From a virus (Duplodnaviria > Caudoviricetes), in IMG/VR virus record IMGVR_UViG_3300036770_003690, positions 1 to 58,586 of that record: a stretch of 58,586 nucleotides of DNA. One strand, written 5' to 3'. Made by a program: the position numbers and the translations under genes. The notes under the pieces were generated by a model, which did not search any database, was not told where the DNA came from, and saw only the letters and a program-made list of their open reading frames with translations. The stretch's first letter is position 1; each line of letters opens with the position of its first letter. Shown here piece after piece: positions 25,236 to 41,615 of this stretch.

Positions 25236-28200
25236 TTACTCTCCTCCTAATGCTAGAATGAATGGGGTTAAGGTTGAGAACAAGCTCTTAGAATAAGATG
25301 TTCCAGAAATTGTTCCAGTATTTTGGTTAATAATCAATCCATCACCAATCTTGAAGTTACCTGACTGGTCAGTGCTTGTGTAAACTACTAGTCCACCATT
25401 TACACTGATTGTTTGATTTTCAGGTTTAGTAACTCCACCATTCTGTGGAAGAGCACCTTTAACATCAGTTCCAGCACCAATGAATTCAAATGAAATACCA
25501 GCAGCAAGAATTCTACTTTGCTTGTAGAAGTAAACAGGCATTCCTTCAGTAACTTCATATGGAATTTGAGTATCAAATGTTACTGTTGAAACTCCAGCAG
25601 ATGGTAAAGTTGCTTTAGAAACCGTATAGTATACAGGTGCCATTTCAACTGTCACTCTTGCTTGAGTTCCACCAGAAGGAGGGGCAGAGATTGAAACGGT
25701 AGGAGGAACAATAAATCCTCTACCACTAGACACAACCTCAACAGAAACAACTCTACCGTCTTCAACGGTTGCAATTGCCTGAGCAGGAACTCCCCAATCT
25801 GTAGTTGGACCTCCAAGTGTAACTTCTGGAGTATCTGTATATCCACTTCCCCCATTAGTAACATTAATCTTATTCACCTGATAATATAGTTTATCAAATA
25901 CTGCAACTTGTCCATCAAATGGTCTTACTGCATTAATCTGAACAGTTCCACCAGAAGTATAATAGTGTGGGAATGGACCAGCACCAACGTTAGCAGTAAA
26001 GAAAGTGCTTGCTGCTGATACTGCTACAGTTGTAGCAGTTCCTGCGATAATTGCTTCAGTTGCAATTCCAATCAAGCTGTCAATAGTATCTTGAACATTC
26101 TGACATCCTTCTGGGGAATTATTTGATCCGGTAAGAGGATCTTCAACAAGTGAGAAGTTCTTATTATTCAGTTGATTATTAATAGCAAGTTGCATATAAT
26201 CGCCAGAAGCACGGAATGCTGTTACAGTCTCTGCTTCCTCACCAACAAGAGCATCGGAGAGTGGATTTCCAAAAGCATCAAAGTAGTAGTTAGTTGCCTC
26301 AATTGTATTTGCGTTGGTGAAGTTTTCTAAGTCCTTAGAAACCGCATCAACAAAGTATCCAATATCTCTTCTACACTTAGCTTCTTGGTCAAGGAATCCA
26401 CCAACATTAACAGTGACACCATCAAGTGCTGTGAGAGTTCCAATTCCGATTACAGAAGTAATAATTCCAACTCTGTTATCAACAAAGTCCTGAACATCCT
26501 GACAAGTTTCAGCATTTCCAGATCTATTATAAACAATGTCTGGAGTAGAAGCACCGTAAACAGCAGGACCAAATGATAATGTTAGATCCTTGGCATAAAG
26601 TTGATTTGTCAATGCTCTCTTCATATAATCTCCAGCAGCATCAAATGCTGTTACAGATTCTGCTCTTTCAACATCAAGACCTGGGGCAATAGGATTACCT
26701 TGCTCATCAAAGTATTGCTTAGCAAACTCAATTGAGTAAGTATTTCCACCAACAAATACATCAGTAGAAACAGCATCAACAAGATAACCAATGTCTCTAG
26801 CACACTTATAACCACCTGGGGAACTGGTAGTTCCTAACCCAACTAAATCCCCTGCCGTAGTTCCAAATCCAACAGTCTGATTGAATTCCCCAAGAGTCTG
26901 ATAGAAGAATCCACTGCTGATTCCGATTGAACCATCATAAAGGGCAGCAGTATTTCCTGCTCCGATTACGGTAGTAATAATTCCAACGAGAGTTTCAATG
27001 TTGCCCTGAACATCTAGGCAAGTTTCAGCATTGCCAGAGGCATTGTAAGTTACAATTCCAACTCCACCAAAACTAGAAGGACCAAATGAGAGAGTTAGGT
27101 CTTTTCTGTAAAGTTGGTTAGTAATTGCCTTCTGCATCAATCCAGTAGAAGATTCAAATGCAGTTAGTGAAGGTAGTTCCTCACCAGCCAGACCACCTCT
27201 GATTGGGGTTCCATCGGCATTGTAATACTGCTCTGAGAATCCTCTAGAGTAGACATTACCACCAGTAAATACGTCGGTAGAAACGGCATCTACGAGGAAT
27301 CCAAGGTCTCTAGCACACTTATAACCACCTGGGTTCTCAGTAGTTCCAATACCAGAAGTTCTATCGAAGATTCCAGTATTATACTCTAGACCTGAGAATG
27401 AAGCAGTGCTTCCTGCTCCAAGAGCAACTGTTACGATACCAACCAAGTTGTCAACTTCGTCCTGAACATCTAAACAAGATGCTTCATTTCCTGAAGGAAG
27501 AACAGGAATGGAAGTACCAGCACCAGCATAATATGCCTTACCTGAAGAAATGCCAACATCCTTTCTGTAAAGTTGATTAGTAAGAGCATCCTTCATAAAT
27601 TCACCAGCACCTACCAATCCAATAACTGTTGGATGTACTTCATCCCCATCAATGTAAATTGCTCCACTGTTATCAAAGTACTGGAGGGTATATTCTTGAG
27701 AATACTTATTGCCAGCAATAAAGATATCGGTTGATACTGCGTCGATGAAGAAACCTACGTCTCTAGCACACTTATAACCACCTGGAGTATTTGTAGTTCC
27801 AAGACCAACAGATTGTGAGAAGTAACCATCTGTGACTGAAGGTAGAGAAGCAGTGCTTCCTGCTCCAAGAGCAACGGTTACGATACCAGCAAGAGTATCA
27901 AGATTGTCTTGAATATCAAGGCAAGCAGTTGGGTCTGTATTTGGAACGTCAGAACCGACGTTGTAGTAGGTTCCACCGATTGAAATTGTTAAGTCTGAAT
28001 ATGCGGCACCAACCAGTGAGTTGGTAATCGCATTCTTCATATAACCAGTTGCTGCCTCAAATACGAAGATTGATTCATTGATTTCACCATCAAGACCATT
28101 TGTGATTAATGAACCACCTTCAAAGTATTGGAATGTGAACTCTCTTGAATAGGTATTTCCACCAGTAAGAGCATCGAGTGAAATAGCATCAATGAAGAAT

Positions 28201-31200
28201 GCTGTGTCCCTCTTACACTTATCCATTACAGCAGCAAAGTCGAACGCAGAGAATGCTGGTTCATTAACAGCATCGGTAAATGCTAGTCCAACAATAACAT
28301 CCTTATTGAGTTGAATTAGACGATAAGCATCATAGAATCTTGATCTTTCGTTCTCTTCCGCATCACCTGGGAAGAAGAATGTATCATAAGCATCATATCC
28401 AACAGCAATCTCACCGATAGATCTATCAATGATTTCTTGTCTGTTCTGCTGAATGAGACGGTATGAATCGAAGAATCTATACTGCTCATCATCTCTTTCA
28501 TCAAATCCTGGGTTGATTGTTGGTAGTGAAGTTGTAGTTCCAAGACCAACAGCAACGGTAGCAATTCCTACGAGGTTCTCAATGAGTGCCTGAACATCAG
28601 CACAGGATTCTGGGCTTCTGTTATCATCAGTGAGATAATCTGGAGAAATTGTAAGATCTTGTGAATTGAGTTGGTTAGTTACTGCTGCTCTGGAGAGATC
28701 TCCAAAAGCAGTAAATGCGGTAACTGATTCTGATTCTTCACCGAGGAGACCATCAGAAATTGGGTTTCCAAGGGCATCGAAGTAGCTTAGAGCAAATCCT
28801 ACGGTATTCTTGTTTCCACCAGTCCATACGTCCTCTGCGAGGGCAAAGTGGAGGAATCCAAGGTCTCTAGCACACTTGAATCCACCTGGGGAACTGGTAG
28901 TTCCGATACCTGACTGGTTAAAGTATCCTTCATTTACAGCAGGTAGATTTGTGGTAGTTCCAAGTCCAACAGCAGTTGTGGTAATACCGATGAGGTTATC
29001 AATTTCATCCTGAACATCTTGGCAAGCATTAGGATTACCAGAGAGTAGAACAGGTTCTGAAGTTCCTACACCAGCATAAACTGCTGTACCTGAAGAAATG
29101 CCTACATCCTTACGGTTTAGTTGGTTAGTAATTGCCTTCTTAGCATAATCTCCAGCAGCACCGAATGCTACAACTGAAGGTGCTTCTTCTCCAAGTAATC
29201 CTTCAGCAGTTGGATTACCATTCTCATCAAAGTAGAAGAGTGAGAAGTCAACTGAGTAACTGTTACCACCAGTAAATACGTCAGTAGCAACGGCATCTAC
29301 CAAGTATCCAAGGTCTCTAGCACACTTAACACCACCTGGGGAAGTTGTTCCGAGACTGATTGTATTGAGAGTTAACTTGGTGAATGGATCAGTGTTGATT
29401 ACGAAGTTACCAAGATTGAGTGAAGAACCTGATGGTAGAGTTGTAGTGGTTCCAAGACCAACAGCAACGGTTACGATACCAACAAGGTTTTCAATGTTTG
29501 CCTGAACGTCGATACAAGCATTAGGATTACCAGACTTAAGAACTGGGATTGAAGTTCCTGCTCCAGCATATGATGCCTTACCTGAAGAAATTCCTACGTC
29601 CTTAGCATTGAGTTGGTTAGTTACTGCTCTCTGCATATAATCAGCAGCAGCAGAGAAGGCAACAAGTGATTGTGCCTCTTCACCAACTAATCCATTAGAG
29701 ATTGGAATACCAGCACCATCGAAGTATTGGAGAACAAACTCTCTTGCATAGCTGTTACCACCAACGAATACGTCAGTAGATACGGCATCTACAAGGAAAC
29801 CAATGTCTCTAGCACACTTAAATCCCCCTGGGGAACTTGTAGTTCCAACACCAGATTGTGCGAAGTATCCAAGGTTAATATCTGAAGTTACATCTCCAGC
29901 AGTGGCCTCAGTTCCAAGTCCGACAACTGAAGTAACAATACCGATAAGTGTATCAATGTTATCTTGAACGTCAAGGCAAGCAGCAGCATTTCCTGAAGGA
30001 AGAACTGGGATTGAAGATCCTGCTCCAGCATATGATGCCTTACCTGAAGAAATACCTACATCCTTAACATAAAGTTGGTTGGTAATCGCATCCTTCATAT
30101 ACTCACCAGCAGCAACGAATGCTGTGAATGAAGGACCTTCTTCTTCATAAAGACCGTCAGAGATTGGATTACCATTCTCATCAAAGTACTGAAGAATGAA
30201 TTCTCTTGAGTAGTTATTACCACCAGTGAATACGTCAGTAGAAACAGCATCTACAAGGAAACCTACGTCTCTAGCACACTTAATTCCACCTGGAGAATAA
30301 GTGCTAACTCCAAGAGTAAGATTAAACTCACCTACATCAAGAGTATTTGTTTGTGATGGTAGGAATCCGATAGTTCCGAGTCCAACAGCAACAGTAACGA
30401 TACCTACAAGAGTATCAATACTATCCTGAACATCAAGGCAAGCAGAGGCATTTCCTGATCTGAGAACTGGAACTGAAGTACCAGCACCAGCATAGTATGC
30501 CTTACCTGAAGAAATGCCAACATCCTTATTAAAGAGTTGGTTGGTAATCGCATCCTTCATATATTCACCAGCACTTTCAAATGCTACAATAGAAGGACCT
30601 TCTTCACCGAGAAGACCATTAATAATTGGAGCAGCATTTTCAAAATACTGAAGTGCAAATCCATCTGAATAGTAGTTACCTGCGGTAAACAAGTCAGTTG
30701 AAATTGCATCAATGAAGAATCCAAGATCTCTTGCACACTTAAATCCACCTGGGGAACTAGTAGTTCCAACACCAGCAATTGATGGACTAAAGTAACCATA
30801 ATTAATTTCTAAAGTTACATCAGCAGCAGTAGCAGTGGTTCCAAGACCAACAACTGAAGTAACAATTCCAATCAGAGTATCAATGTTATCTTGAACGTCA
30901 AGGCAAGAAGCAGCATTACCTGAAGGAAGAACAGCAATGGAAGTACCAGCACCAGCATAGTATGCCTTACCTGAAGAAATACCTACATCTTTGGTGTTAA
31001 GTTGGTTGGTAATCGCATCCTTCATTAATTCACCAGCAGTGATGAATCCATAAAGGGATTGAAGTTCTTCTTCATAAAGACCTTCAAGAATTGGTTCACC
31101 AGTTCCATCATCAAAGTATTCAAGAATAAATTCTCTTGAATATACATTACCACCAGTAAATATGTCAGTGGAAACAGAGTCTACAAGGAAACCAATGTCT

Positions 31201-34013
31201 CTAGCACACTTGAATCCACCAGGAGTGCTAGTAGTTCCAATTCCTGTCTGAGCAAAGAATCCTACGTTTCTTGTAGAAGCAAAGTTTGCAGTAGTTTCAT
31301 TAGTAATAGCAGTTGTAACAATTGCTACGAGGTTCTCAATGTTTGTCTGAACGTCAGCACAAGCAGCAGTATCAGTATTTGAAGAAGCACCAGTAGAAGT
31401 AGTAATACCCAAATCTTTAACAGTAAGATTATTGGTGATTGCCAACTTCATTCTGTCTCTAGCATAATTAAATGCGTAAACAGATTGTACTTCTTCACCT
31501 TCAATTGAAGTTGAAGTAATTGATCCATTTGCAAAATACTGAAGAGTAAAGTCTTGTGCGTAAGAGTTACCACCAGTAAGAATATCTGTTGAGATTGCAT
31601 CAATGAAGAAACCAAGGTCTCTCCTACACTTAACTTCAGCAAAGTTTAGTGAAGCACCAAAGTTATTTCTAGTAGCAGTCCAAGTCTCATTTACAATCTG
31701 CTCTTTGTTCTTCTGAATCAGACGATAAGCATCGTAGTATCTTGATCTTGCGTTAGTTACTTCATCTCCGGGGAATACCCAATCAGTTGGATATTGATCG
31801 TAATTAAGAACAATACCACCGATAGACTTATCAATAATCTCTTGTCTATTCTGTTGAATTAGACGATATGAATCATAGAATCTTGATCTCTCATTGGTTT
31901 GAGCATCATCTGGGAAGTAGAAATCAGGATATGAAATTGAAATAGAAGCAAGTGACTTGTCAATAATCTCTTGTCTATTTTGTTGGATTAGACGGTATGA
32001 GTCGTAGAATCTTGATCTTGCTGTAGTCTGGTCATCTCCAGGGAAGAAGAAGTCTGGGTTATCAATCGCAATCGCAGCAAGTGACTTATCTACGATTTCT
32101 TGCTTGTTTAACTGAATGAGACGATATGAATCAAAGAATCTTGATCTTTCATTAGTCTCCTCATCACCTGGGAAGAAGAATTGATCATAGTTAAGAGCAA
32201 TCGCAGCAAGTGATTTATCAACAACTTCTTGCTTGTTTTGATTAATTAAACGATAAGCATCATAGAATCTTGATCTTGGGTTAGTTTCTTGATCACCTGG
32301 GAAGAAGAAATCTGGATATAAATCATAGTTAAGTGAGATAGCAGCAAGTGACTTATCTACAATTTCTTGCTTGTTCTCAAGAATTAAACGGTATGAATCA
32401 AAGAATCTTGATCTCTCATTGGTTTGAGCATCATCTGGGAAGTAGAAATCAGGGTGATATAAAGAAATAGTGGCAAGTGATTTATCAATTAACTCATCCT
32501 TATTAGCATTAATTAGATTGTATGAATCTTTGAATCTATTTCTGCTTGAATCTGGGAAGTAGAAATCGGGATGATCAATTGAAATAGAAGCAAGTGAACG
32601 GTCAATGATTTCCTGTCTGTTCTGCTGAATCAGTCTGTAAGAATCAAAGAATCTTGATCTTGCGTTTGTTTGCTGATCATTTGGGAAATAGAAATCAGGA
32701 TGATCTACAGCAATTTGAGCAAGTGAACGGTCAATGATTTCTTGCTTATTCTGCTGAATTAGTCTATATGAATCATAGAATCTTGAAGATGAATTAGTCT
32801 GATCTTCTCCAGGGAAGAAAAAGTCTGGATGATTAAAGGCAATAGCAGCAAGTGACTTATCAAGAATCTCTGTTCTGTTTGCCTGAATAGATTCACTTGC
32901 ATCTACATATCTTCCAGGAGCAACAGTTCTTGCTTCAAATACATATCCATAATTACCTGAAGGATATTCTAATTCTATAACACCACCATCAGAATCACAA
33001 GTAAATCCAAGACCGGCAATGGTAACACCCATCCCGACAACTAATTCATGTGCTCTATCTAATACAAAAGTTGCAATTCCAGTAACATGATCATATGAAG
33101 CATCAACTACGTTCATTATAGGAGCATTTGCTTCTAAATTAATTCTTACAGTTGAAGCATCTGTCCCAGCATTTGCAGTAACAATACCAACATACTTAAG
33201 ACCTGATACACCATCGGCAACTAGTCCAAAGTCACCGAATGATGAGTTTGAGTTGGTAAGGTCGCAACCACCACCAGAATCACATCTAACACCAGTTCCA
33301 CTACAGATAGTGAAGAGTGATACGAGCTGAGCATATGCTCCATTGAACATATATGCTCCAATACCACCTGGATTAATTTGAGTATAGGAGTCAAGAACCA
33401 TTGACTTGATAGGACCAATGGCATGTTTTCCGTTAATATTAAGACCAATACTTCCTGGAATAAAGTTAGTGCAGTTCTGAATATAAGGTGATTGATCAAT
33501 ATATGGAACTACTTCAGGGTTAAATGTTACAATTGCTGCTCCTGGAGCTGCTGGTCCAATGAAGGACATTTCAGCAATATAGCATCCATTGTCCAACCAA
33601 AATAGGTCTGTTTTATTCTTAGGAGTTACAGTTACTTCTCTAAGACTATCTCCTACAACAGAAACGTTATTTGGAAGTACAATTGGGTTATCTTCTAGAT
33701 AAACTCCAGCACTAATTTTAATAACTGTTCCTGGGACAGACTCTGCGACGGCAGCTTTAATGGTTCTTTTTGCGTCTCCGAGCTTTTTGCCTGTGTTGTT
33801 GTCGTTACCATCTTGTGTTACATATAGAACATTTATTACTGTTGCTCCAGCACCGACCCTTATAATGTCAGTACCAATTCCTGGCCTTTCTCTGGCCATA
33901 TAGACTTCACCATCAAACGTATTGATGGCTATTTCGCCTAAAGGAAGATCTGATACAGTTGGAATCTTATTTGGAACTGATGATCTCTTAAATCTAATCT
34001 TAGGACTTGCCAT
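25236..34013 (-). CDS. 2925-aa virion structural protein with beta-helix-like region and 12 split repeat domains
   Basis: IRFKRS...GEIAINTFDG anchor; YVTQDGNDNN..G..RTIKAA; SPYIQNCT; 12 RFxDxYRLI-type and 12 KCxRD-type repeats; late-type TAAATA upstream. Confidence 0.8.
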   Translation of the reverse strand: MASPKIRFKRSSVPNKIPTVSDLPLGEIAINTFDGEVYMARERPGIGTDIIRVGAGATVINVLYVTQDGNDNNTGKKLGDAKRTIKAAVAESVPGTVIKISAGVYLEDNPIVLPNNVSVVGDSLREVTVTPKNKTDLFWLDNGCYIAEMSFIGPAAPGAAIVTFNPEVVPYIDQSPYIQNCTNFIPGSIGLNINGKHAIGPIKSMVLDSYTQINPGGIGAYMFNGAYAQLVSLFTICSGTGVRCDSGGGCDLTNSNSSFGDFGLVADGVSGLKYVGIVTANAGTDASTVRINLEANAPIMNVVDASYDHVTGIATFVLDRAHELVVGMGVTIAGLGFTCDSDGGVIELEYPSGNYGYVFEARTVAPGRYVDASESIQANRTEILDKSLAAIAFNHPDFFFPGEDQTNSSSRFYDSYRLIQQNKQEIIDRSLAQIAVDHPDFYFPNDQQTNARSRFFDSYRLIQQNRQEIIDRSLASISIDHPDFYFPDSSRNRFKDSYNLINANKDELIDKSLATISLYHPDFYFPDDAQTNERSRFFDSYRLILENKQEIVDKSLAAISLNYDLYPDFFFPGDQETNPRSRFYDAYRLINQNKQEVVDKSLAAIALNYDQFFFPGDEETNERSRFFDSYRLIQLNKQEIVDKSLAAIAIDNPDFFFPGDDQTTARSRFYDSYRLIQQNRQEIIDKSLASISISYPDFYFPDDAQTNERSRFYDSYRLIQQNRQEIIDKSIGGIVLNYDQYPTDWVFPGDEVTNARSRYYDAYRLIQKNKEQIVNETWTATRNNFGASLNFAEVKCRRDLGFFIDAISTDILTGGNSYAQDFTLQYFANGSITSTSIEGEEVQSVYAFNYARDRMKLAITNNLTVKDLGITTSTGASSNTDTAACADVQTNIENLVAIVTTAITNETTANFASTRNVGFFAQTGIGTTSTPGGFKCARDIGFLVDSVSTDIFTGGNVYSREFILEYFDDGTGEPILEGLYEEELQSLYGFITAGELMKDAITNQLNTKDVGISSGKAYYAGAGTSIAVLPSGNAASCLDVQDNIDTLIGIVTSVVGLGTTATAADVTLEINYGYFSPSIAGVGTTSSPGGFKCARDLGFFIDAISTDLFTAGNYYSDGFALQYFENAAPIINGLLGEEGPSIVAFESAGEYMKDAITNQLFNKDVGISSGKAYYAGAGTSVPVLRSGNASACLDVQDSIDTLVGIVTVAVGLGTIGFLPSQTNTLDVGEFNLTLGVSTYSPGGIKCARDVGFLVDAVSTDVFTGGNNYSREFILQYFDENGNPISDGLYEEEGPSFTAFVAAGEYMKDAITNQLYVKDVGISSGKASYAGAGSSIPVLPSGNAAACLDVQDNIDTLIGIVTSVVGLGTEATAGDVTSDINLGYFAQSGVGTTSSPGGFKCARDIGFLVDAVSTDVFVGGNSYAREFVLQYFDGAGIPISNGLVGEEAQSLVAFSAAADYMQRAVTNQLNAKDVGISSGKASYAGAGTSIPVLKSGNPNACIDVQANIENLVGIVTVAVGLGTTTTLPSGSSLNLGNFVINTDPFTKLTLNTISLGTTSPGGVKCARDLGYLVDAVATDVFTGGNSYSVDFSLFYFDENGNPTAEGLLGEEAPSVVAFGAAGDYAKKAITNQLNRKDVGISSGTAVYAGVGTSEPVLLSGNPNACQDVQDEIDNLIGITTTAVGLGTTTNLPAVNEGYFNQSGIGTTSSPGGFKCARDLGFLHFALAEDVWTGGNKNTVGFALSYFDALGNPISDGLLGEESESVTAFTAFGDLSRAAVTNQLNSQDLTISPDYLTDDNRSPESCADVQALIENLVGIATVAVGLGTTTSLPTINPGFDERDDEQYRFFDSYRLIQQNRQEIIDRSIGEIAVGYDAYDTFFFPGDAEENERSRFYDAYRLIQLNKDVIVGLAFTDAVNEPAFSAFDFAAVMDKCKRDTAFFIDAISLDALTGGNTYSREFTFQYFEGGSLITNGLDGEINESIFVFEAATGYMKNAITNSLVGAAYSDLTISIGGTYYNVGSDVPNTDPTACLDIQDNLDTLAGIVTVALGAGSTASLPSVTDGYFSQSVGLGTTNTPGGYKCARDVGFFIDAVSTDIFIAGNKYSQEYTLQYFDNSGAIYIDGDEVHPTVIGLVGAGEFMKDALTNQLYRKDVGISSGKAYYAGAGTSIPVLPSGNEASCLDVQDEVDNLVGIVTVALGAGSTASFSGLEYNTGIFDRTSGIGTTENPGGYKCARDLGFLVDAVSTDVFTGGNVYSRGFSEQYYNADGTPIRGGLAGEELPSLTAFESSTGLMQKAITNQLYRKDLTLSFGPSSFGGVGIVTYNASGNAETCLDVQGNIETLVGIITTVIGAGNTAALYDGSIGISSGFFYQTLGEFNQTVGFGTTAGDLVGLGTTSSPGGYKCARDIGYLVDAVSTDVFVGGNTYSIEFAKQYFDEQGNPIAPGLDVERAESVTAFDAAGDYMKRALTNQLYAKDLTLSFGPAVYGASTPDIVYNRSGNAETCQDVQDFVDNRVGIITSVIGIGTLTALDGVTVNVGGFLDQEAKCRRDIGYFVDAVSKDLENFTNANTIEATNYYFDAFGNPLSDALVGEEAETVTAFRASGDYMQLAINNQLNNKNFSLVEDPLTGSNNSPEGCQNVQDTIDSLIGIATEAIIAGTATTVAVSAASTFFTANVGAGPFPHYYTSGGTVQINAVRPFDGQVAVFDKLYYQVNKINVTNGGSGYTDTPEVTLGGPTTDWGVPAQAIATVEDGRVVSVEVVSSGRGFIVPPTVSISAPPSGGTQARVTVEMAPVYYTVSKATLPSAGVSTVTFDTQIPYEVTEGMPVYFYKQSRILAAGISFEFIGAGTDVKGALPQNGGVTKPENQTISVNGGLVVYTSTDQSGNFKIGDGLIINQNTGTISGTSYSKSLFSTLTPFILALGGE

Positions 34014-34621: not shown

Positions 34622-35413
34622 TTAATATTCGCCAGCATCAACATCGATTCTATTATCAAGATCTTCATCAAGTTGATCAAGGAATTCATTTGGCAATCCT
34701 TCTTCAGTCTCTTCAGTAACAGATGCTCTGAGAACTTCATCTGGGTTAACAGTTTGGTAAGTTCTAGTATCTGCATCGTACATAATCACATACTTGTCTA
34801 AGACACTTAGATCATTAACATTTGCAAGATCTCCAAGTGTTAGATTTTCCAATTCATTACTTAGTTGATTTAATGCTTCAGCAAGAGCTTCTGGTATAAG
34901 AACCTCATTTAAGTAATTTAATACATTTGCAGGAAGTCCATTTTCATCAACAGCAGAACTTAAGATTTCATCAGGATCAACTGCTTCATATTTTCCAGCA
35001 GTTTCATCATATCTTATTAAGAAAGTATCTGAAGCAGTGTCAACAGATTCTTTAACATTAGCAAGTCTACCTAATGTTAGACTATTGATATATTCGTAAA
35101 TAGCAATTACAGCATCTATTAGAGATTGTGGATTCAATACGTCATTGAGATACTCAATAAATCCTTCAGGTAATCCATTAATCAATGCATCTGATAATAA
35201 CTGATCAGGATCGAAGAATTTATATTTTTCTGAAGCAGCATCATATATCATTACATAATTATCTTGAACATTACTAGTGTCCACATCCATTAAATCTGAA
35301 AGTTTTCTTGCCATAATTATCCCTGACCTTGAGGCAACTTTAATTGGATTTTTTGATCTTCTAACTCTAGCAGAGTATGTTGGAGTTACGACTCTGACAT
35401 TGATTGGTGCCAT
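34622..35413 (-). CDS. Acidic protein with three internal repeats, probably virion-associated
   Basis: Three copies of L.DL..V...D..V..YD....KY...DPD..L...GLP. Confidence 0.7.
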   Translation of the reverse strand: MAPINVRVVTPTYSARVRRSKNPIKVASRSGIIMARKLSDLMDVDTSNVQDNYVMIYDAASEKYKFFDPDQLLSDALINGLPEGFIEYLNDVLNPQSLIDAVIAIYEYINSLTLGRLANVKESVDTASDTFLIRYDETAGKYEAVDPDEILSSAVDENGLPANVLNYLNEVLIPEALAEALNQLSNELENLTLGDLANVNDLSVLDKYVIMYDADTRTYQTVNPDEVLRASVTEETEEGLPNEFLDQLDEDLDNRIDVDAGEY

Positions 35414-35748
35414 TATAGGGTAGTGTCCTCTACTATGATTGATCCAGTTACCACTCTGGTCCTAAAATCAAGTTCAGTATTTGTAATAAAGACATCAAAA
35501 TAAGTTCTTCCTGATGGAAGAGTAGAAGTCATAGTTCTTCCCATAGAAATAGATATTTCACCATCAGCAGTAGTTATGCCGACATTGAAATTATAAGATG
35601 TTGGTGAAGTAGGATATTTTTTTAATCTTGCTTCAGCAGTAGTATAAAGAAGGTTTAACATCCCACCATCATCACCAGTCAGATAAAAAGAAGTCTCAAA
35701 ATCAGTTCCTTTTTCTATTACTAAATTTACGACAGGAACTACAGACAT
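35413..35748 (-). CDS. Small structural protein (BppU-N/baseplate-like)
   Basis: NLVIEKGTDF...GRTYFDV...RVVTGSIIV; TATAAATA at ~35773. Confidence 0.6.
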   Translation of the reverse strand: MSVVPVVNLVIEKGTDFETSFYLTGDDGGMLNLLYTTAEARLKKYPTSPTSYNFNVGITTADGEISISMGRTMTSTLPSGRTYFDVFITNTELDFRTRVVTGSIIVEDTTL

Positions 35749-35782
35749 TTTTACTTTCTTATACTATAAAAATATTTATAAA

Positions 35783-36301
35783 TTATTGCTTATCAAATTC
35801 AAACATACCGTGTTCTGATCCCCAAATCATTTCTTTTGTTTCAGGACAATAACCTCTATCAATTACTCTATAGGTTCTTTCTCTTAATTCAGACATAGTA
35901 AAAAGAAAGGATGTTTTTCCATTCTTTTCAACAATACAATCACATCCAATTATTCTTCCGTAATAAGTATCATCTTTCTTTATGAAAATACAATCACAAC
36001 CTTCATTTTTTTCCAAGTCTTCCTCTTTAATATTTTCTATATCTTTAAAATATAAAAACTTTCCACCATCCTTTACCTTATAGCTACTAACTACAATTTT
36101 CTCATTAATTTCTTTTACCTCCAAAACGAATTGTCTATATGGAGGTTGTTTACGAACACTATACCACTGCTCACCATATATCATACCGTTCGGCAAAAGA
36201 ACGTGCTTCAGAGAAATTTGAGAATATTGTGAAGGAAAAGAAAATGCTTGTCTTCTATTGTTAAAAGAACCAAGAAGAAATTCTTTAAATTCATCAATCA
36301 T
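35783..36301 (-). CDS. cpeT: CpcT/CpeT-family phycobiliprotein lyase
   Basis: GSFNNRRQAF..P, EQWY..PYRQ, GCD, DRGY...IWGS..G.FEF; overlaps ho1. Confidence 0.85.
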   Translation of the reverse strand: MIDEFKEFLLGSFNNRRQAFSFPSQYSQISLKHVLLPNGMIYGEQWYSVRKQPPYRQFVLEVKEINEKIVVSSYKVKDGGKFLYFKDIENIKEEDLEKNEGCDCIFIKKDDTYYGRIIGCDCIVEKNGKTSFLFTMSELRERTYRVIDRGYCPETKEMIWGSEHGMFEFDKQ

Positions 36302-36995
36302 TTTCGGTACTACCTCTCCTTTGACGACTTGTTAAACTTGAAAAAAGAACTTTTCCAATTGCTGAAATTAAATTACCTTCAACTTCCTTGAATACTTTCA
36401 TATTCAATCTAAAGGCATTATTTGCTTCAGCAATAATAGAATTTATAGTCCCTTCAGTGAAAGGAAGTGAATCTAAAGTTTTTCTATAATTATCTTTGAA
36501 CTCTTTTTCATCAGGGATATCTTTAAAGATATAAAAGTTCATACCAGAATCATCTACCTTCAAAGCCGTTTGAGCAATCTTTTTGAGTACCTGACCACCA
36601 GATAAATCACCAATATATCTTGTATAGTGATGAGCAATTAAAAGTTCTGGAAATACATCAGAAACTTCTTTTATTTTACTAACATATTCCTTACAAGAAT
36701 CAGTCTGAGTAACACTTTGTTTCCATTCAGGTCCAAAATAATACTCCAAATCTTTTTCTATAGATTCTTTGCGAAAAAGTTCTGGGAAATAAATCTGACT
36801 TAAAATTGGATGCTCTTTATGTCTATCAAACTCTTCTTCCATCGCAGAGTAGACGTGATATAAGTCAGATAGCAATTTAACATAAGATTTTTTTTCAACG
36901 ACACCCTTCAGAAAGCACGTAATAAAACCAGTGTTTTCTGCCATCGTGTGAGATTTTTTTGTTCCTTCTCTTATTTGTTTTGATAAATCGGTCAT
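36294..36995 (-). CDS. ho1: Ferredoxin-dependent heme oxygenase
   Basis: REGTKKSHTMAENTGFITCFLKG, AHHYTRYIGDLSGGQ, EANNAFRLNM. Confidence 0.95.
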   Translation of the reverse strand: MTDLSKQIREGTKKSHTMAENTGFITCFLKGVVEKKSYVKLLSDLYHVYSAMEEEFDRHKEHPILSQIYFPELFRKESIEKDLEYYFGPEWKQSVTQTDSCKEYVSKIKEVSDVFPELLIAHHYTRYIGDLSGGQVLKKIAQTALKVDDSGMNFYIFKDIPDEKEFKDNYRKTLDSLPFTEGTINSIIAEANNAFRLNMKVFKEVEGNLISAIGKVLFSSLTSRQRRGSTEND

Positions 36996-37783
36996 TCTTT
37001 TGCTCCTGAAGATTCGGTTACTTTTCCAAGATATGGATTATAATCAGTAATTTGTTCAATAGTTATATTTGCTCCAGCAGTTTGCCAGAAATTAAGGATT
37101 GCATTGTAAGAATTTTTATGAAAAATATCAATATGCTCTGGGTGAATAGTAGAACCTAATTCTAATCTGTAAAGAAGTAATGGTGAAGCATAGGTGCAAC
37201 CAGAGTTATAAATTAAGTCATCAGCAACAGCTCTAGGCTTTACTCCATTATCAATCTTATATTTACCATCCCTATAATGATTCCGGATTAGTTTTTCAGC
37301 GTGGTGTCTTGTAATCACATAACAAGCAGTTGAAAAATCATTTACAAAACGATTGTGAATAGGAACAACAATATCCCCAGTACAAATAATCGCAAGTTGT
37401 AAAACATCCCAAGCATAGGGTGCTCTAGCAACTAAATCACTCCAAGTAAAGTTCCAATACTTTACGGTCTCAAGACTACAATCATCTTCCATAATTACGG
37501 CATATGGAGAGTCTGAAGTTGTATACCAATGATGGATTGCCTTTAGATGAGAAGTTACACATCCAACTTCACCAGATGACATAAGATCGGGGTATCTTCC
37601 TTTTATAATATCACTTAAATCATCTTCTCTACCATCATATGCAGAAATACGAGTATAGTTTTCTATCTCCCAGTATTTAAATTGTTCTTCCATATACTCC
37701 TTTCTTTCTGGTTGCCCATCAAGATTTAAGTAATATATTGGACCAAAATTTTTCAGTTTATACGCAGATTTATTTTTATCCAT
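36992..37783 (-). CDS. GT25-family glycosyltransferase
   Basis: YYLNLD..PER, RISAYDG, EVGCVTSHLKA, IMEDD. Confidence 0.85.
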   Translation of the reverse strand: MDKNKSAYKLKNFGPIYYLNLDGQPERKEYMEEQFKYWEIENYTRISAYDGREDDLSDIIKGRYPDLMSSGEVGCVTSHLKAIHHWYTTSDSPYAVIMEDDCSLETVKYWNFTWSDLVARAPYAWDVLQLAIICTGDIVVPIHNRFVNDFSTACYVITRHHAEKLIRNHYRDGKYKIDNGVKPRAVADDLIYNSGCTYASPLLLYRLELGSTIHPEHIDIFHKNSYNAILNFWQTAGANITIEQITDYNPYLGKVTESSGAKE

Positions 37784-37797
37784 AATATTTCATTAAT

Positions 37798-38535
37798 TTA
37801 TTTTAAGAAAAAAGTCAATACTCTATTTAATACCTCATCTTTTTTTGTGTTTTTAGAAACTTCAAATTGATTATTCCAAAAACAAGCATTTCTATAATGT
37901 AGGAACTTCTCTTCCAAATGAAGTTCAAATCCATAGTCAGAATCTATATTTTTTAAATCAACATCTTCAAATAAATCAGGATAAACTACTTCATATGGTT
38001 TATACTTAAAATTATCAAAAAGTTTATAAGTCCCACCACCAGAATCTAATGTTATTCCATTAATGGATATTGGAAGAAAATTTAATTCAAATCTATTCAA
38101 AGATTTCATATTCAAAAATAATAATCCAGGCCAAACATAATTAACATTATTTCTAGATTGAAGAAGTCCAGAAAAATCATAATCATTTAGGTATTCTAAA
38201 ATATCAAACTCTTCAAGTAAAAATATATCATGATCTAACATTAAAACACAATCTTCCGAATGCTTTGTTAAGATTATGTTTTGATATGTCCAATTAAGAC
38301 ATTCCCCATGATAATAACTCGGAGTATAATTACCTTCTGGAGAGTTATGCTCATAGAAATTTAAATTGTTATTTTTACATATCAATTTAAATTGATCAAG
38401 ATAATCTGGGGTTCTATAGTTGCAAATTACATTTATTTCATAGTTATTATTTTTTATATTTTTTCTAAGACATTCAACTTGTGTTTCTAAAAAATCTGGT
38501 CTATTAAAAGTGAATATAAAAATTTGAATCTTCAT
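37798..38535 (-). CDS. Putative GT-A-fold glycosyltransferase
   Basis: FNRPDFL N-terminus and LDHD (DxD) motif; cluster context. Confidence 0.6.
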   Translation of the reverse strand: MKIQIFIFTFNRPDFLETQVECLRKNIKNNNYEINVICNYRTPDYLDQFKLICKNNNLNFYEHNSPEGNYTPSYYHGECLNWTYQNIILTKHSEDCVLMLDHDIFLLEEFDILEYLNDYDFSGLLQSRNNVNYVWPGLLFLNMKSLNRFELNFLPISINGITLDSGGGTYKLFDNFKYKPYEVVYPDLFEDVDLKNIDSDYGFELHLEEKFLHYRNACFWNNQFEVSKNTKKDEVLNRVLTFFLK

Positions 38536-39413
38536 TTTTTATTTTTAATCCAATCTAAAACTGAAATAGTATAATTCCATCCAAGATGTGTTTTTATCTT
38601 TGATATATCTGCTCTTGAATGAAGAACTTCTCCGATTCTTTCGGGAATTCTAACTTGATAGGATGAAATTAAATCAGCAATATCTGAAATTTTAGTTCCA
38701 ATACTTGTACCTACATTAAATTCTTCTCCATAAGAAGTTAATTCTTTTTGAGAAGCTAGAATATTTGCGTTAACAACATCAGAAACATGTATAAAATCTC
38801 TTGTCTGATAACCGTCTCCAATTATAGTTAATGGTTCACCACTTTCTTTTTGTCTCATAAAGATTGACATTACTGGAGCATATTGTCCTGTTTTATGTTG
38901 CCTCTCTCCATATACATTGAAATATCTGAAAATAACTGTTTTCAATCCATATAGTTCATAATACATTTTACAAAGTTGTTCTCCAGTATGTTTTGAGATT
39001 GAATAAGTGTTTAGGCACTTAACTGGATTGGTTTCTACACTAGGTAAGAATAAACTATTTCCGTATACTGCAGAAGTGGAAGAAAACATAAATTTATTTA
39101 CTTTATGAAGTCTAGAGCACTCCAAAACATTCATAGTAGACAAAGTATTATTTGCCATACTTTCATTTGGTTTTTCTACACAATAAGGTATAGAAACATC
39201 AGATGCTAAGTGAAAAACATTATCTACTCCCTCAAAATAGTGAACAAACTTATAATAGTTTTCAGATAAATCTTGAAGATAATATTTTGCTTTCTCGTTT
39301 TTATAATTAGGTAATACTCTATCTAATACTATAACATCGTGTCCTATTTCCACTAAAAGATCTACAAGATGAGAACCAATAAAACCGCATCCACCAGTCA
39401 CTAAACTTTTCAT
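38532..39413 (-). CDS. NAD-dependent nucleotide-sugar epimerase/dehydratase
   Basis: VTGGCGFIGSH, SSTSAVYG, YSISK, RYFNVYG; start placed at MKSL. Confidence 0.9.
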   Translation of the reverse strand: MKSLVTGGCGFIGSHLVDLLVEIGHDVIVLDRVLPNYKNEKAKYYLQDLSENYYKFVHYFEGVDNVFHLASDVSIPYCVEKPNESMANNTLSTMNVLECSRLHKVNKFMFSSTSAVYGNSLFLPSVETNPVKCLNTYSISKHTGEQLCKMYYELYGLKTVIFRYFNVYGERQHKTGQYAPVMSIFMRQKESGEPLTIIGDGYQTRDFIHVSDVVNANILASQKELTSYGEEFNVGTSIGTKISDIADLISSYQVRIPERIGEVLHSRADISKIKTHLGWNYTISVLDWIKNKK

Positions 39414-39414
39414 A

Positions 39415-39960
39415 TTAATAAACCTTAAAGCAAAGAACATTTCCTATTAATTGATGCTTATAATTTGGATTAATAGTTTTTACAAAATCAATTACATCGT
39501 CTAGTTTTAGATAATCAAACATCCAAGTTTCAAAGCACTGAAAATCATCAATCAAAATAACATGATCTTTAATGGGATGATTTTTAATTATTTCCAACTC
39601 TTTCATTAAAGGACAAGGATCAATACCTTCCTTTACTGATATTGGACCAAATCCCAAATCCTGTCTAGTTTCATCAAAAGGCATAAAATGTGCATCAAGA
39701 AAAATCATTACTTTTTCATTAATTTCAGACAAAACTTTTTCAAGAAAAACTTGAGATTCTTCAACCTCAGCAATTACATTTTTGCCCTTAAACTTTTCTC
39801 TTGCATCTGAAATAAAATCTGGATTGATATCGCAGGTATATACCTGCTCAAACCCAGATAAAAGAGCCCTTTCAACTCCATCCCCCTTCCAACATCCGGT
39901 TTCAATAAAAACCTTTATGCCTTGATTATATTGAGTAAAAACTTGAACTGAACTTGTCAT
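39415..39960 (-). CDS. Methyltransferase-fold protein
   Basis: FIETGCWKGDG, FLDAH, ILIDD. Confidence 0.65.
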   Translation of the reverse strand: MTSSVQVFTQYNQGIKVFIETGCWKGDGVERALLSGFEQVYTCDINPDFISDAREKFKGKNVIAEVEESQVFLEKVLSEINEKVMIFLDAHFMPFDETRQDLGFGPISVKEGIDPCPLMKELEIIKNHPIKDHVILIDDFQCFETWMFDYLKLDDVIDFVKTINPNYKHQLIGNVLCFKVY

Positions 39961-40709
39961 AAAATTTTTGTCGGTAAAAAATATCCTGGTATACCATTTA
40001 CGTCTTTCATCTCAATGAGAGGTTTTAATGGTGATTTGAAATTACTATTAATTTTATAATAGTTTTCGTCTTCTGTCAAAATTCTATTGAATAGTTTATT
40101 TGAAGTATCTCTACCTAAGGATACTTCACTTATTTTTCCTGTTGTAACAGCACTCCATTCATACTGCCTAAAAAGAGGAGAATCAAAAGAATAAACATTA
40201 TAATATCTATGAATCTCAGCAAATCCTATATCCAAATGATTCTCTATTTCATAACCAGAGTGATATGAAATACGTTTACATATATCAACATAACAATCAG
40301 ACAGATACATTATAGCATGAGTTGCAAGCATATTATGAACTCTTACAATTTCATCATTAATTTTAGTAGTATGAACATATGGACCGGAATGATTTAAATA
40401 TCTCCCCCAATGTGAAATACCAAGATATAAAGCATCTGCATCATCAGGTAGTTCTACACTATCAAAAAATTCTCTATTTAAGGAACAATCATCCTCTAAA
40501 ATTATGAATGGGGGAGTTTGAGTTTTAAGAATCTCATAATGAGATCGAGCACATCCGATTATTCTCCCTGCCTCATGTCTTATTGCGGAAAATCTTTGGA
40601 CATATTTGAATCCAAGAATTTTAAGCATTTCTTCTGTTCTTTTTCTTTTTTCATCTTCACCATCAAGATTAATATAAAAAACAGGAATTTCAGTTAATTT
40701 AATATTCAT
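39957..40709 (-). CDS. GT25-like glycosyltransferase
   Basis: FYINLD, IGCARSH, IILEDD. Confidence 0.7.
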   Translation of the reverse strand: MNIKLTEIPVFYINLDGEDEKRKRTEEMLKILGFKYVQRFSAIRHEAGRIIGCARSHYEILKTQTPPFIILEDDCSLNREFFDSVELPDDADALYLGISHWGRYLNHSGPYVHTTKINDEIVRVHNMLATHAIMYLSDCYVDICKRISYHSGYEIENHLDIGFAEIHRYYNVYSFDSPLFRQYEWSAVTTGKISEVSLGRDTSNKLFNRILTEDENYYKINSNFKSPLKPLIEMKDVNGIPGYFLPTKIL

Positions 40710-41614
40710 AAAATAGAAAGTAGACTTTGAACACGATTTAAATAAGTATGATTCTCTTTTATAAATTCTTGATTATCTTTTAAGACTTCTTTTGTTGCAT
40801 TTTTAGATGCCTCTTCAGTTTCGGTATAAAGATTATTTAAGTCTTCGTTGGTAGTAATTCTTCCATCAAAAAACTTATTCATTTTAATTGAATTTGTTCC
40901 AATCCAACATCCATAACTCAATGCCTTAAAAATTCTACAAGGAATGTATCCATTGTCTAAATGCTGAGGTGGTCTTAAATCGAAATTTAAATAAGATTTT
41001 TTTGTAAGATCTATATTTTGATTGTCATCCATAAACCCATTATTTTTTCTACTGCGAATACCGGAATATCCTCCATAATTAACAAACTGCTTTCCATTAG
41101 AATCGACAACAGAAGTAATTTTTTGAATATATTCTCCAGAAAGAGATCCAATATAATTTACAGTATCTTTTGTATTATCGAAAAGAACTTGATCTTGAGA
41201 ATCAATTTCATCCGGAAGAAGATCAGTTCCCCACATTATAACAGCAGTTTTAGTGTCAGGATGATACCAAGAATATTCATCAATATTTTTTACATCATCA
41301 TTCCAATTATATTGCTCATGATAAACTAAAAGGTTATATACATTATCATGCTCAATTTTATTTTGAGAATGAAATCCATCCTCTATATTGTGAATAAAAT
41401 ATTTTGAAGAATCAACGATTGGAAGATGTCTACGGCAATTATTTTCAGAAATTATGATAGCATCTGATAGATCTTCTTGAGAATATTCTTCACTATCATC
41501 ATACCATACTACATCATAATCCAAATAAGAAAATGCTTTTGCAAATCCAAGATGTATATAAGAATGTGTATGAGTATGTGGTGGGTATCCCCATATTACT
41601 ATTTTTTTAGTCAT
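40706..41614 (-). CDS. Putative GT-B-like glycosyltransferase
   Basis: GYIPCRIFKALSYG and NHTYLNRV C-terminal motifs. Confidence 0.6.
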   Translation of the reverse strand: MTKKIVIWGYPPHTHTHSYIHLGFAKAFSYLDYDVVWYDDSEEYSQEDLSDAIIISENNCRRHLPIVDSSKYFIHNIEDGFHSQNKIEHDNVYNLLVYHEQYNWNDDVKNIDEYSWYHPDTKTAVIMWGTDLLPDEIDSQDQVLFDNTKDTVNYIGSLSGEYIQKITSVVDSNGKQFVNYGGYSGIRSRKNNGFMDDNQNIDLTKKSYLNFDLRPPQHLDNGYIPCRIFKALSYGCWIGTNSIKMNKFFDGRITTNEDLNNLYTETEEASKNATKEVLKDNQEFIKENHTYLNRVQSLLSIL

Positions 41615-41615
41615 T

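Follow-up and report, generated by a model that had tools for sequence, protein, structure and literature searches.

A giant fibre protein of a T4-like cyanophage is probably a nested, branched chain of phycobiliprotein-like domains

A viral gene product of 2925 amino acids, P0001, is best explained, with a probability of roughly 0.8, as a fibre of a T4-like cyanophage consisting of a nested chain of phycobiliprotein-like domains. P0001 is encoded by one open reading frame (ORF) of the window, the whole stretch of 58,586 nucleotides that was analysed, and the interpretation is drawn from sequence comparison. The protein would be a baseplate-associated fibre of a Kyanoviridae-type phage, and its central 2300 residues would comprise twelve copies (D1 to D12) of one all-alpha domain without an N-terminal X-Y arm. 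Each copy is proposed to combine an A segment, containing helices A-B and the B/E loop (phycobiliprotein residues 39-77), with a B segment, containing helices E-H (residue 77 onward). D10 and D12 would be contiguous, and each of the other ten domains would be split in the B/E loop by another copy, at four to five residues ahead of the Cys82 position. The insert of D3 would hold two sub-trees, giving the topology D1>D2>D3>[D4>D5>D6>D7>D8>D9>D10][D11>D12], and the entire tree would sit in a turn of a beta motif of about 50 residues. The chain may run out via the A halves and back via the B halves, as a two-stranded string of beads with a long arm of about 10 beads, a side arm of 2 beads and both chain ends at the base. 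Such loop-in-loop insertion, with a 3-domain trunk and 7- and 2-domain branches, had been claimed in a first-pass annotation of this DNA, and is supported by four mutually independent tests on the sequence: 1) complementary halves, 2) nested grammar in homologues, 3) transfer of covariation, and 4) an uninterrupted form of the host beta motif.

P0001 matches the tail-fibre families PHROG 4527, 5342 and 17885, and can be assigned to the cyanomyovirus class of "short tail fibre / virion structural protein". By regular expressions and manual placement on the translation, 12 A segments (37-47 residues) and 12 B segments (133-171 residues) were located (Table 1). Every B segment starts with KCxRD and carries a second Cys within C.[DN][VI]Q. 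The order proposed earlier, A1-10, B1-7, A11-12, B8-12, was reproduced, and the A10-B1 and A12-B8 junctions are direct, as had been claimed. The variant motifs thought to mark partners were mostly recovered (I.AN in A1/A4, YFDA.GNP.SD and SPE.C in B7/B12, SIG in A9/A11, ASC in B2/B9), but AGE.MKDA is not unique to B2/B9, being carried by B3 and B4 too. In the identity matrices, A4 stands out among the A segments and B7 among the B segments. PDB sequence searches found no solved relative of either the N-terminal or the C-terminal region; the latter contains a weak He_PIG Ig-like match.

Table 1. Features of the fibre gene and its upstream neighbours in the window. Halves, domains (D) and partners are those of the proposed parse.
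Feature	Residues (aa)	Position	Strand	Assignment	Basis
Whole gene	2925 aa	25236..34013	-	P0001	ORF list, translation, PHROG
N-terminal region	1-333	33015..34013	-		Pfam PF07602 DUF1565 (beta-helix-type), aa 69-124, E 6.7e-5
Host beta motif, first half	334-367	32913..33014	-	GLGFTC...GYVFEARTVAPG	Alignment to P0024 copy
A1	368-410	32784..32912	-	N-half of D1, partner B12	Placement, parse
A2	411-453	32655..32783	-	N-half of D2, partner B11	Placement, parse
A3	454-492	32538..32654	-	N-half of D3 (branch-point domain), partner B10	Placement, parse
A4	493-535	32409..32537	-	N-half of D4 (base of 7-domain branch), partner B7	Placement, identity matrices
A5	536-581	32271..32408	-	N-half of D5, partner B6	Placement, parse
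A6	582-624	32142..32270	-	N-half of D6, partner B5	Placement, parse
A7	625-667	32013..32141	-	N-half of D7, partner B4	Placement, parse
A8	668-710	31884..32012	-	N-half of D8, partner B3	Placement, split-chain fold (weak)
A9	711-757	31743..31883	-	N-half of D9, partner B2	Placement, parse
A10 + B1	758-794 + 795-934	31212..31742	-	D10, contiguous, long-branch tip, least conserved domain	Placement, conservation, hhalign query
B2	935-1091	30741..31211	-	C-half of D9	Placement
B3	1092-1244	30282..30740	-	C-half of D8	Placement, split-chain fold (weak)
B4	1245-1398	29820..30281	-	C-half of D7	Placement
B5	1399-1562	29328..29819	-	C-half of D6	Placement
B6	1563-1712	28878..29327	-	C-half of D5	Placement
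B7	1713-1845	28479..28877	-	C-half of D4	Placement, identity matrices
A11	1846-1891	28341..28478	-	N-half of D11 (base of 2-domain branch), partner B9	Placement, parse
A12 + B8	1892-1931 + 1932-2080	27774..28340	-	D12, contiguous, short-branch tip	Placement; conservation 0.79, 0.79
B9	2081-2231	27321..27773	-	C-half of D11	Placement
B10	2232-2402	26808..27320	-	C-half of D3	Placement
B11	2403-2545	26379..26807	-	C-half of D2	Placement
B12	2546-2679	25977..26378	-	C-half of D1; end overlaps host beta motif	Placement
Host beta motif, second half	2671-2689	25947-26003	-	FFTANVG..PHYYTSGG	Alignment to uninterrupted copy
C-terminal region	2690-2925	25239..25946	-	C-terminal ends of cyanophage fibre families	PHROG 17885 and 3442 at aa 2661-2923
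LtfC-like ORF		35413-35748		Opens fibre module	Located between cpeT and fibre gene
Late-promoter-like site TATAAATA		35773..35780	-	Between cpeT and LtfC-like ORF	1 of 3 window matches
cpeT-like bilin lyase gene		35783..36301	-	1.8 kb upstream of fibre gene	PF06206 E 7e-32, PHROG 488
Heme oxygenase gene		36294..36995	-	Adjoins cpeT	PF01126 E 1.8e-79

Profile comparison shows that the A and B segments complement each other, each supplying half of a domain that is homologous to the globin core of phycobiliproteins. With hhalign, 232 contiguous A-B units were aligned with 28 cyanobacterial phycobiliproteins at a probability of 95.95% (E 5e-9, 120 columns), unit positions 4-146 corresponding to phycobiliprotein residues 39-171, and the reversed control gave 0.1%. 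An independent tandem subfamily (235 units) yielded 94.6% (E 7e-8; reversed control 0.3%). Taken apart, 467 non-innermost A segments aligned to residues 39-77 (85.6%), and 400 of 475 non-innermost B segments, including the pre-linker, to residues 77 to 125 (75.1%). Whole P0001 scored 38.8 bits against Pfam PF00502 (cut-off 22.2), with all individual stretches below the cut-off. A single A10-B1 unit gave marginal matches to phycocyanin-alpha in the PDB (E 0.04-0.75); no Pfam family was matched by two contiguous units scanned alone, no PDB chain by a 12-row B-only profile, and no usable A10-B1 match was found in the ESM Atlas. The homologous core extends from helix A to helix H. Phycobiliproteins have in addition N-terminal X-Y helices, which serve alpha-beta pairing. 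The phage domain is without these helices, since the alignments begin at phycobiliprotein residue 38-39, and successive A segments of P0001 leave insufficient space for 38 more residues. The phage domain also differs in its long G-H loop and in being present in 1 to >30 copies per giant virion protein, split and nested.

Could the A and B segments instead constitute two separate arrays? The A segments would then form a helical rod or solenoid and the B segments self-sufficient, truncated globin-like beads, with block duplications accounting for their order and equal counts. We regard this as improbable. Runs of as many as 10 A segments alone do resemble a classical tandem helical repeat, but A and B complement each other exactly within a single homologous fold, and A lies directly ahead of B wherever the domain is unsplit. 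Independent arrays would also not be expected to produce words such as AABAAABBABBB and AABncAAAABAAABBBBBBAnABABc, both of which were read in homologues. With weak hits accepted, a perfect nested parse was obtained for 29 of 43 distinct architectures, or 98 of 121 homologues, against means of 1.48 (maximum 6) for token-shuffled words and 3.19 (maximum 9) for run-order shuffles; strict thresholds gave 14-15 of 45, and since the architectures are phylogenetically related, these counts are not independent events. At most one parse error was found in 40 of the 43, and 14 were imperfect even at relaxed thresholds. The weak A hits in homologues P0101 and P0036 fall precisely at the places predicted by the grammar. 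The number of A segments equals that of B starts in 37 of the 43 architectures; the equality expected of homologues fails in P0022 (9 A, 10 B) and P0041 (4 A, 5 B), where the single excess B is in line with two arrays. The counts in P0022 were traced to the in-frame loss of 3 A units and 2 B units.

Of 138 further representatives, analysed as a second set, 19 gave perfect parses, one of them being P0122 with 12 domains. More than one error was found in 103 of 136 words of this set, most of them belonging to a subfamily of 25-32% identity, whose C-halves were missed by the HMM used. Plain tandem arrays of the intact domain are present in P0213 and P0127, and P-HM2 gp7 has two single unsplit units. 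Among parsed homologues outside the group of P0001 itself, nesting is up to 6 levels deep. Insertion within the family takes place at two or three sites, in the B/E, G-H and F-G loops.

Covariation between A and B segments was found to be specific to the nested pairing, which likewise argues against two arrays. In a transfer test, the top 25 A-B column pairs were learnt on 701 contiguous units and scored by APC-MI. The mean was 0.056 (percentile 0.70) for the nested pairing, -0.0001 (0.48) for the parent's B and -0.017 (0.36) for the child's B, while within-protein shuffles averaged 0.003 with a maximum of 0.0076. The covariation of contiguous units recurs, by this measure, under nested pairing only. 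The transfer test was relied on because total mutual information fails to separate the true pairing (504) from parent pairing (502). In Mantel tests, the nested pairing of P0001 gave r = 0.63 (P ~0.001), and 13 of 14 representative proteins showed a positive correlation, 10 of them at P < 0.05. The mirror-image "parallel" pairing beat the nested one in 5 of these 14 tests; neighbouring repeats are alike, so mirror-image pairings correlate too, as two arrays would also allow. A conservation mirror test (r 0.83) was not counted for pairing, because contiguous tip units drive the correlation.

A different arrangement, also unlikely, is complementation between chains by 3D domain swapping, in which A and B runs from different subunits of an oligomeric fibre complete each other. 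Phage fibres are usually oligomers, and A8 and B3 could be docked when folded as separate chains. This split-chain fold lends weak support to the packing of the two halves that the nested parse predicts, and fits pairing within a chain or between chains; the score was 0.33 against 0.00 for the best control (partner pLDDT at least 55; at least 58% of contacts agreeing between runs). Of the solved complexes put through the test, 58 of 80 attained the mark used, as did 2 of 110 mismatched pairs; with scores of <=0.60, only 7 of the 80 complexes attained it, and both passing mismatches fell in this range. Against swapping, an antiparallel zipper between chains requires the word to equal its own mirror complement, which A10 B7 A2 B5 does not, and the two contiguous units coincide exactly with the points at which the word turns. 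The host beta motif bears on the same question. The first-pass annotation held that the repeat block interrupts a beta domain, and this was confirmed by uninterrupted 52-residue copies of the motif in P0023 (aa 1184-1235) and P0024 (aa 1180-1231). The ends of the uninterrupted copy align to P0001 aa 334-364 and aa 2672-2689, the first half in P0001 corresponding to the first 29 residues of the P0024 copy. The two ends of this motif have to come together, and an inserted module that begins and finishes at one place in a single chain agrees with this better than swapping does.

Identity between the DNA copies of the repeat is no higher than 60-80%; the repeats are therefore old, and recent duplication or assembly artefact is excluded as their origin. 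Metagenomic misassembly of the repeat order, or an ORF not expressed as one protein, is accordingly very remote as an explanation: the 58.6-kb window, a viral contig with an estimated completeness of 26%, is unverified, and assemblers can be misled by repeats, but besides the divergence of the copies, the same 12+12 word is present in 15 independent homologues at 72-93% identity (16 close-group proteins with P0001) and, with one B split by an insert, in 5 further close-group proteins, the isolates S-PM2, S-RSM4, S-CAM1 and Syn9 have long ORFs matching the domain, and nested words were read in S-RSM4 P0073 and S-PM2 P0105. A megablast search found no close isolate relative, its sole match being 47 nt.

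The closest known counterpart of the nested chain is the Si3 insertion of cyanobacterial RNA polymerase beta', for which a survey of 2.7 million domains describes six-level nesting of 8-10 domains, one domain family being inserted recursively into itself with bifurcating nodes (PMC13114784). The Si3 fold is a beta sandwich-barrel hybrid motif (SBHM) and the P0001 domain is all-alpha and globin-like, so the families are different, as are the roles, Si3 acting at the polymerase trigger loop and P0001 as a virion fibre. Self-recursive insertion is documented in that survey to the six levels of Si3 only (PMC13114784), whereas P0001 would nest 12 copies of a single domain ten levels deep, the host motif being additional, and would include a branch point. 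P0001 would be a natural rod made of an out-and-back chain, and as such is relevant to protein evolution and protein design. No description of the domain or of its nesting was found in the literature searched.

The domain was detected in 306 cyanophage records by tblastn and in 612 protein clusters. Cyanomyovirus giants with the same domain include S-RSM4 SRSM4_214 (P0073), S-PM2d088 (P0105), the short tail fibers of S-PM2 (165928-177267) and S-CAM1, Syn9 gp101 and P-HM2 gp7, which are merely 25-48% identical to P0001. Relatives among the tblastn matches listed are annotated as tail fiber, short tail fiber, virion structural protein or gp7. P0001 owes the label "short tail fibre" to these annotations and to PHROG 4527 alone. 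In S-RSM4, S-CAM1 and S-PM2, the giant gene comes after gp5 hub/lysozyme genes and ahead of short-tail-fibre or tail-collar genes, and in the window, the gene is flanked by the LtfC-like ORF and a gene for a 3891-residue collagen-like fibre. By gene order, the giant gene belongs to a baseplate/fibre module. In S-PM2, it adjoins a separate gp12-annotated gene. A distant tandem subfamily (P0127, P0213, P0137) likewise has an A-like helix pair ahead of KCxRD and keeps the first Cys, Arg and Asp, but consists of contiguous head-to-tail units with a period of about 160 residues and lacks the second conserved Cys; no nesting was detected in it with the HMMs used.

The Cys residues of the B segments align with chromophore-related positions of phycobiliproteins, in which Cys-x-Arg-Asp is the bilin-attachment motif. 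KCxRD aligns to ACLRD of L092, a phycocyanin-beta-like ORF, at the Cys82 position, and among non-gap B hits, the Cys is conserved in 940 of 940, the Asp in 941 of 941 and the Arg in 866 of 941. All 12 P0001 domains keep Cys-x-Arg-Asp; bilin binding by the phage domain is putative. The second Cys aligns with beta-Cys153 of the phycocyanin-beta-like protein. A disulfide between the two Cys, suggested in the first-pass annotation, is not favoured. Cys82 and Cys153 are far apart in phycocyanin, and the 394 CxRD motifs of the distant tandem subfamily are without a second Cys at a fixed offset, so that the first Cys, conserved alone there, has no disulfide partner. In the subfamily of P0001, for which a disulfide is conceivable, the two Cys occur together in 706 unique segments, and the first Cys only in 9.

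One tentative reading, which we consider possible rather than probable, is that the fibre is a biliprotein: the KCxRD Cys, and here also the Cys aligned with beta-Cys153, would carry a covalent bilin, and a string of chromophores at the baseplate would sense light. Synthesis of the bilin would involve the phage heme oxygenase, and its attachment either the CpeT-like lyase or autocatalysis. Heme oxygenase catalyzes the first step of bilin synthesis, and beta-Cys153 is the site served by T-type lyases. Conservation of Cys-x-Arg-Asp, with the first Cys kept alone in the tandem subfamily, is in favour of this reading, as is the position of ho1 and cpeT directly upstream of the fibre gene. The heme oxygenase of the window is 57-62% identical to cyanobacterial HO, and the cpeT-like gene product is a possible functional partner of the fibre. 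In S-RSM4, S-CAM1 and S-PM2, cpeT precedes the fibre gene by no more than about 1-3 kb, and among the matches listed, it is similarly near by coordinates in Sf-CH11, S-RIM44, S-RIM32 and ACG-2014e, but distant in Syn9 and S-WAM1, which speaks against the reading; in phage B23, no cpeT is annotated adjacent to the fibre gene. A late-promoter-like site between cpeT and the fibre module also speaks against it. The sequence of this site, TATAAATA, which we take to be the T4-type late-promoter consensus, has only 3 matches in the window, no excess over chance.

Adsorption behaviour gives a mixed picture of the biliprotein reading. S-PM2 and P-HM2, whose adsorption is light-dependent according to one report (PMC6628666), both carry the domain, and the domain was not detected by sequence searches in the dark-adsorbing P-SSM2. 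On the opposite side, P-SSM2 carries pebS and ho1, as tabulated in a second paper (PMC3037559), yet has no detected domain, and no report of a virion pigment was found in the open-access literature searched. If true, the biliprotein reading would solve two puzzles: the presence of cpeT and of genes for bilin synthesis in cyanomyoviruses, and the light that S-PM2 and P-HM2 require for adsorption irrespective of host photosynthesis. The kinship with phycobiliproteins, together with the neighbouring lyase and heme oxygenase genes, makes the roles of phage cpeT, ho1, pebS and pcyA, and likewise the cause of light-dependent cyanophage adsorption, testable at the bench.

Segment conservation among orthologues was lowest in D10 (A10 0.62, B1 0.69), the other segments ranging from 0.79 to 0.91. 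The contiguous tip domains probably evolve fastest, and are likely to be the contact or sensing ends of the fibre.

The 2925-aa fibre-type ORF of this viral contig (58.6 kb, with an estimated completeness of 26%) contains 12 short A segments of 37-47 aa and 12 long B segments of 133-171 aa, placed by motif searches and by hand. They occur in the order A1-10, B1-7, A11-12, B8-12, with direct joins at A10-B1 and A12-B8, just as the first-pass annotation had described. PHROG matches of the ORF include 4527 ('short tail fiber protein'), 5342, 17885 and other cyanophage fibre families, and a 381-aa piece matched 306 phage records, all of cyanophages; the annotations among the matches listed are tail fiber, short tail fiber, virion structural protein and gp7 baseplate wedge initiator. 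The repeat copies are only 60-80% identical at the DNA level, and the 12+12 word is common to 16 close-group proteins (15 homologues of 72-93% identity plus the window protein itself), indicating that the repeats are real and old. Five further close-group proteins have one B segment interrupted by an insert of ~413 aa. In these relatives (P0015-P0018 and P0020; 3340-3366 aa) the fourth B is split after HMM position ~39, in the F-G loop, and the insert corresponds to aa ~1281-1695 of P0015.

The analysis shows twelve phycobiliprotein-like domains (D1-D12, each consisting of one A and its partner B) with the topology D1>D2>D3>[D4>...>D10][D11>D12]. The nested interpretation of the segments is assigned a probability of about 0.8 from sequence comparison, and the earlier proposal that each domain is inserted into the previous one gains support from grammar parses, covariation under nested pairing, complementarity of the halves and an intact beta motif in relatives. 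A and B were modelled with iterated HMMs, and homologues were read as words over A, B, n and c (n and c being the N- and C-parts of B) under the grammar D -> A S n S c. With strict thresholds the parse was perfect for 14-15 of the 45 architectures and had at most one error for 35-36. When weak matches were admitted (domain E < 1), perfect parses were obtained for 29 of 43 architectures, or 98 of 121 proteins, and parses with at most one error for 40 of 43; the weak A matches sit at the places predicted by the grammar, as in the homologues P0101 and P0036. Shuffling the words left on average 1.48 perfect architectures (at most 6 of 43), and shuffling whole runs left 3.19 (at most 9). Very different words were nevertheless balanced, such as A4B4, A6B6, A4B4A3B3, A4B4A6B6, AABAAABBABBB and ABAAAABAAABBBBBB. 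The second insertion hot spot is the G-H loop, immediately ahead of the second Cys, and the F-G loop is a minor site. An independent second set of 138 cluster representatives yielded 19 perfect parses, with at most one error in 33 of 136; failures were mostly members of the tandem subfamily, whose C-halves were missed by the B model, or fragments.

Equal numbers of A and B in homologues, as anticipated, were found in the balanced nested words of those 29 architectures but not in P0022 and P0041, which are true exceptions. P0022 (2483 aa, metagenomic) has 9 A and 10 B, having lost in frame exactly three A units (129 aa) and two B units (about 309 aa), and represents an unbalanced allele that is tolerated or, alternatively, an artefact of assembly or recombination. 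P0041 has 4 A and 5 B.

When A and B are paired by nesting, the identities among the A segments of the window protein correlate with those among its B segments (r 0.63, P about 0.001); r is 0.26 if the pairing is parallel and 0.12 if the order is simply reversed. Both A4 and B7, the partner predicted for it, stand out as outliers, an outcome not expected of two independent arrays. Nested-pairing r was positive in 13 of 14 representative proteins, with P < 0.05 in 10; parallel pairing outscored nested pairing in 5 of the 14. The most specific of the pairing tests is a transfer test, in which the 25 top-covarying A-B column pairs from 701 contiguous units were applied to 556 non-contiguous pairs. 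Mean APC-MI was 0.056 for nested pairing (percentile 0.70), -0.0001 for the parent's B (0.48) and -0.017 for the child's B (0.36), and within-protein shuffles averaged 0.003 (maximum 0.0076). Split-chain folding of A8 with B3 supports the pairing weakly, scoring 0.33 against 0.00 for the best control. Partner pLDDT was at least 55 and run-to-run contact agreement at least 58%. In the benchmark, 58 of 80 solved complexes reached the mark, as did 2 of 110 mismatched pairs; of those that passed with 0.60 or under there were only 7 of the 80 complexes, but both of the mismatches. The suggestion that the whole A/B block interrupts a small beta motif was confirmed by an uninterrupted 52-aa copy in the homologues P0023 and P0024, which requires the two ends of the 2300-aa block to come together.

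What is the repeat unit? The ORF scores 38.8 bits against the phycobiliprotein family PF00502 as a whole protein, summed across weak stretches; single units fell below threshold when scanned alone against Pfam. In hhalign, 232 contiguous A-B units aligned from 121 homologues matched 28 phycobiliproteins of three cyanobacterial genomes (Prob 95.95%, E 5e-9, 120 columns; reversed-template control 0.1%), unit positions 4-146 corresponding to residues 39-171. A distant subfamily (235 units) gave 94.6%, with a control of 0.3%. We equate the A segment with helices A-B and the B/E loop, and the B segment with helices E-H; the unit lacks the N-terminal X-Y arm in the alignment. Residues 39-77 are matched by the 467 non-innermost A segments, and the stretch from residue 77 onward by the non-innermost B segments (22-aa pre-linker included; 400 of 475 segments used), and judged by these alignments the split halves complement each other exactly. 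Unsplit units are the norm outside the nested group. P-HM2 gp7 (4454 aa) has two single unsplit units, at aa 2799-2944 and 3611-3762. The distant subfamily (P0124-P0148 and P0213; 25-32% identity, 7-33 CxRD motifs per protein) has contiguous units in both proteins examined, P0127 and P0213, where they form plain tandem arrays of period ~160 aa. In the S-PM2 record, the domain occurs in two different giant genes, at 55.6-58.1 kb and 166.4-170.4 kb (ORFs of 3340 and 3792 aa), and the RefSeq annotation places tRNA features within the second.

In the proposed architecture, the chain would run outward via the A halves and return via the B halves, giving a two-stranded rod of beads whose long arm would count 10 beads, with a side arm of 2 beads branching off at D3. 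Both chain ends would lie at the rod base, which would have the N-terminal region, with its DUF1565 beta-helix-type match, and the C-terminal region on either side. Among orthologues, conservation is lowest in the two contiguous tip domains (D10 0.62 and 0.69; D12 0.79 and 0.79; others 0.80-0.91), which fits a contact or sensing role of the tips. In relatives, gp5 hub/lysozyme genes are followed by the giant fibre gene and then by short-tail-fibre or collar genes, and the Syn9 homologue, a 6076-aa 'virion structural protein, putative fiber', adjoins a gp10-like gene. A passage of a 2026 survey of 2.7 million domains presents six-level recursive SBHM nesting in cyanobacterial RNA polymerase Si3 as an example of complex nesting (PMC13114784). 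The window protein, with 10 levels and 12 domains, is alike in type of architecture but differs in fold, context and depth; homologues outside its own group have at most six levels. The open-access literature searched yielded no description of phycobiliprotein-like domains among the structural proteins of cyanophages, nor of their nesting.

Among 1063 B matches (non-gap positions only), the first Cys is conserved in 940/940, Asp in 941/941, Arg in 866/941 and the second Cys in 842/855. The two Cys align to Cys82 and Cys153 of a phycocyanin-beta-like protein; T-type lyases are stated to serve the beta-153 site (PMC10452541, in part). In the tandem subfamily only the first Cys is invariant and no second one is conserved: across 394 CxRD motifs none recurs at a constant distance, and three proteins contain one Cys per unit and no more. 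The invariance of the first Cys is thus not explained by a disulfide, and the bond once suggested between the two Cys of each B segment is not favoured.

Of the new leads, the most consequential are the homology to phycobiliproteins, the conserved residues of the bilin site and the proximity of cpeT and ho1. The heme oxygenase and cpeT pair lies 1.8-3 kb upstream of the fibre gene, and after cpeT come an LtfC-like ORF and two small ORFs. The giant fibre gene of S-RSM4, S-CAM1 and S-PM2 also has cpeT upstream, at a distance of 1-3 kb, and among the matches listed Sf-CH11, S-RIM44, S-RIM32 and ACG-2014e have the same placement by coordinates. CpeT is farther off, without adjacency, in Syn9 and S-WAM1, and none is annotated in phage B23. 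The motif TATAAATA, which we take to be the T4 late-promoter consensus, has only three matches in the whole window, one of them just downstream of cpeT, and the fibre module may have its own late transcript start there. The role of phage bilin genes 'remains a mystery' in one account (PMC3037559, in part). Adsorption of S-PM2, P-HM1 and P-HM2 is described as needing light independently of photosynthesis, possibly via tail fibres, and that of P-SSM2 as occurring in the dark (PMC6628666, in part). The domain is present in S-PM2 and P-HM2, and two domain searches detected none in P-SSM2, although that phage has pebS and ho1. That the fibre is itself a biliprotein is a possible but tentative reading, somewhat less likely than not.

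Coordinates of features in the window
Feature	Position	Strand	Remarks
Glucosyltransferase-like ORF, 989 aa	2394-5363		apart from the sugar-modification island
Second giant ORF, 3891 aa	10676-22351	minus	at least 20 stretches matching collagen-like and tail-fibre PHROGs
Fibre-type ORF, 2925 aa	25236-34013	minus	ORF list, translation
TATAAATA, T4 late-promoter-like match	35773-35780	minus	short gap between cpeT stop and LtfC-like ORF
CpeT-family bilin lyase gene	35783-36301	minus	upstream of fibre gene, same strand
Heme oxygenase gene	36294-36995	minus	upstream of fibre gene, same strand, beside cpeT
Sugar-modification island	36992-46335	minus	
29 tRNA genes	47317-51259	minus	clustered on one strand
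ARAGORN call in tRNA cluster	49833-49903		two-base anticodon

The sugar-modification island encodes GDP-mannose 4,6-dehydratase, two NAD epimerases/dehydratases, glycosyltransferases of families 25 and 6 and two methyltransferases. The tRNA cluster includes two tRNA-Pro(tgg) genes. In the region of the second giant ORF, AT skew is strongly negative (-0.17 to -0.26), and the opposite strand carries long spurious ORFs.
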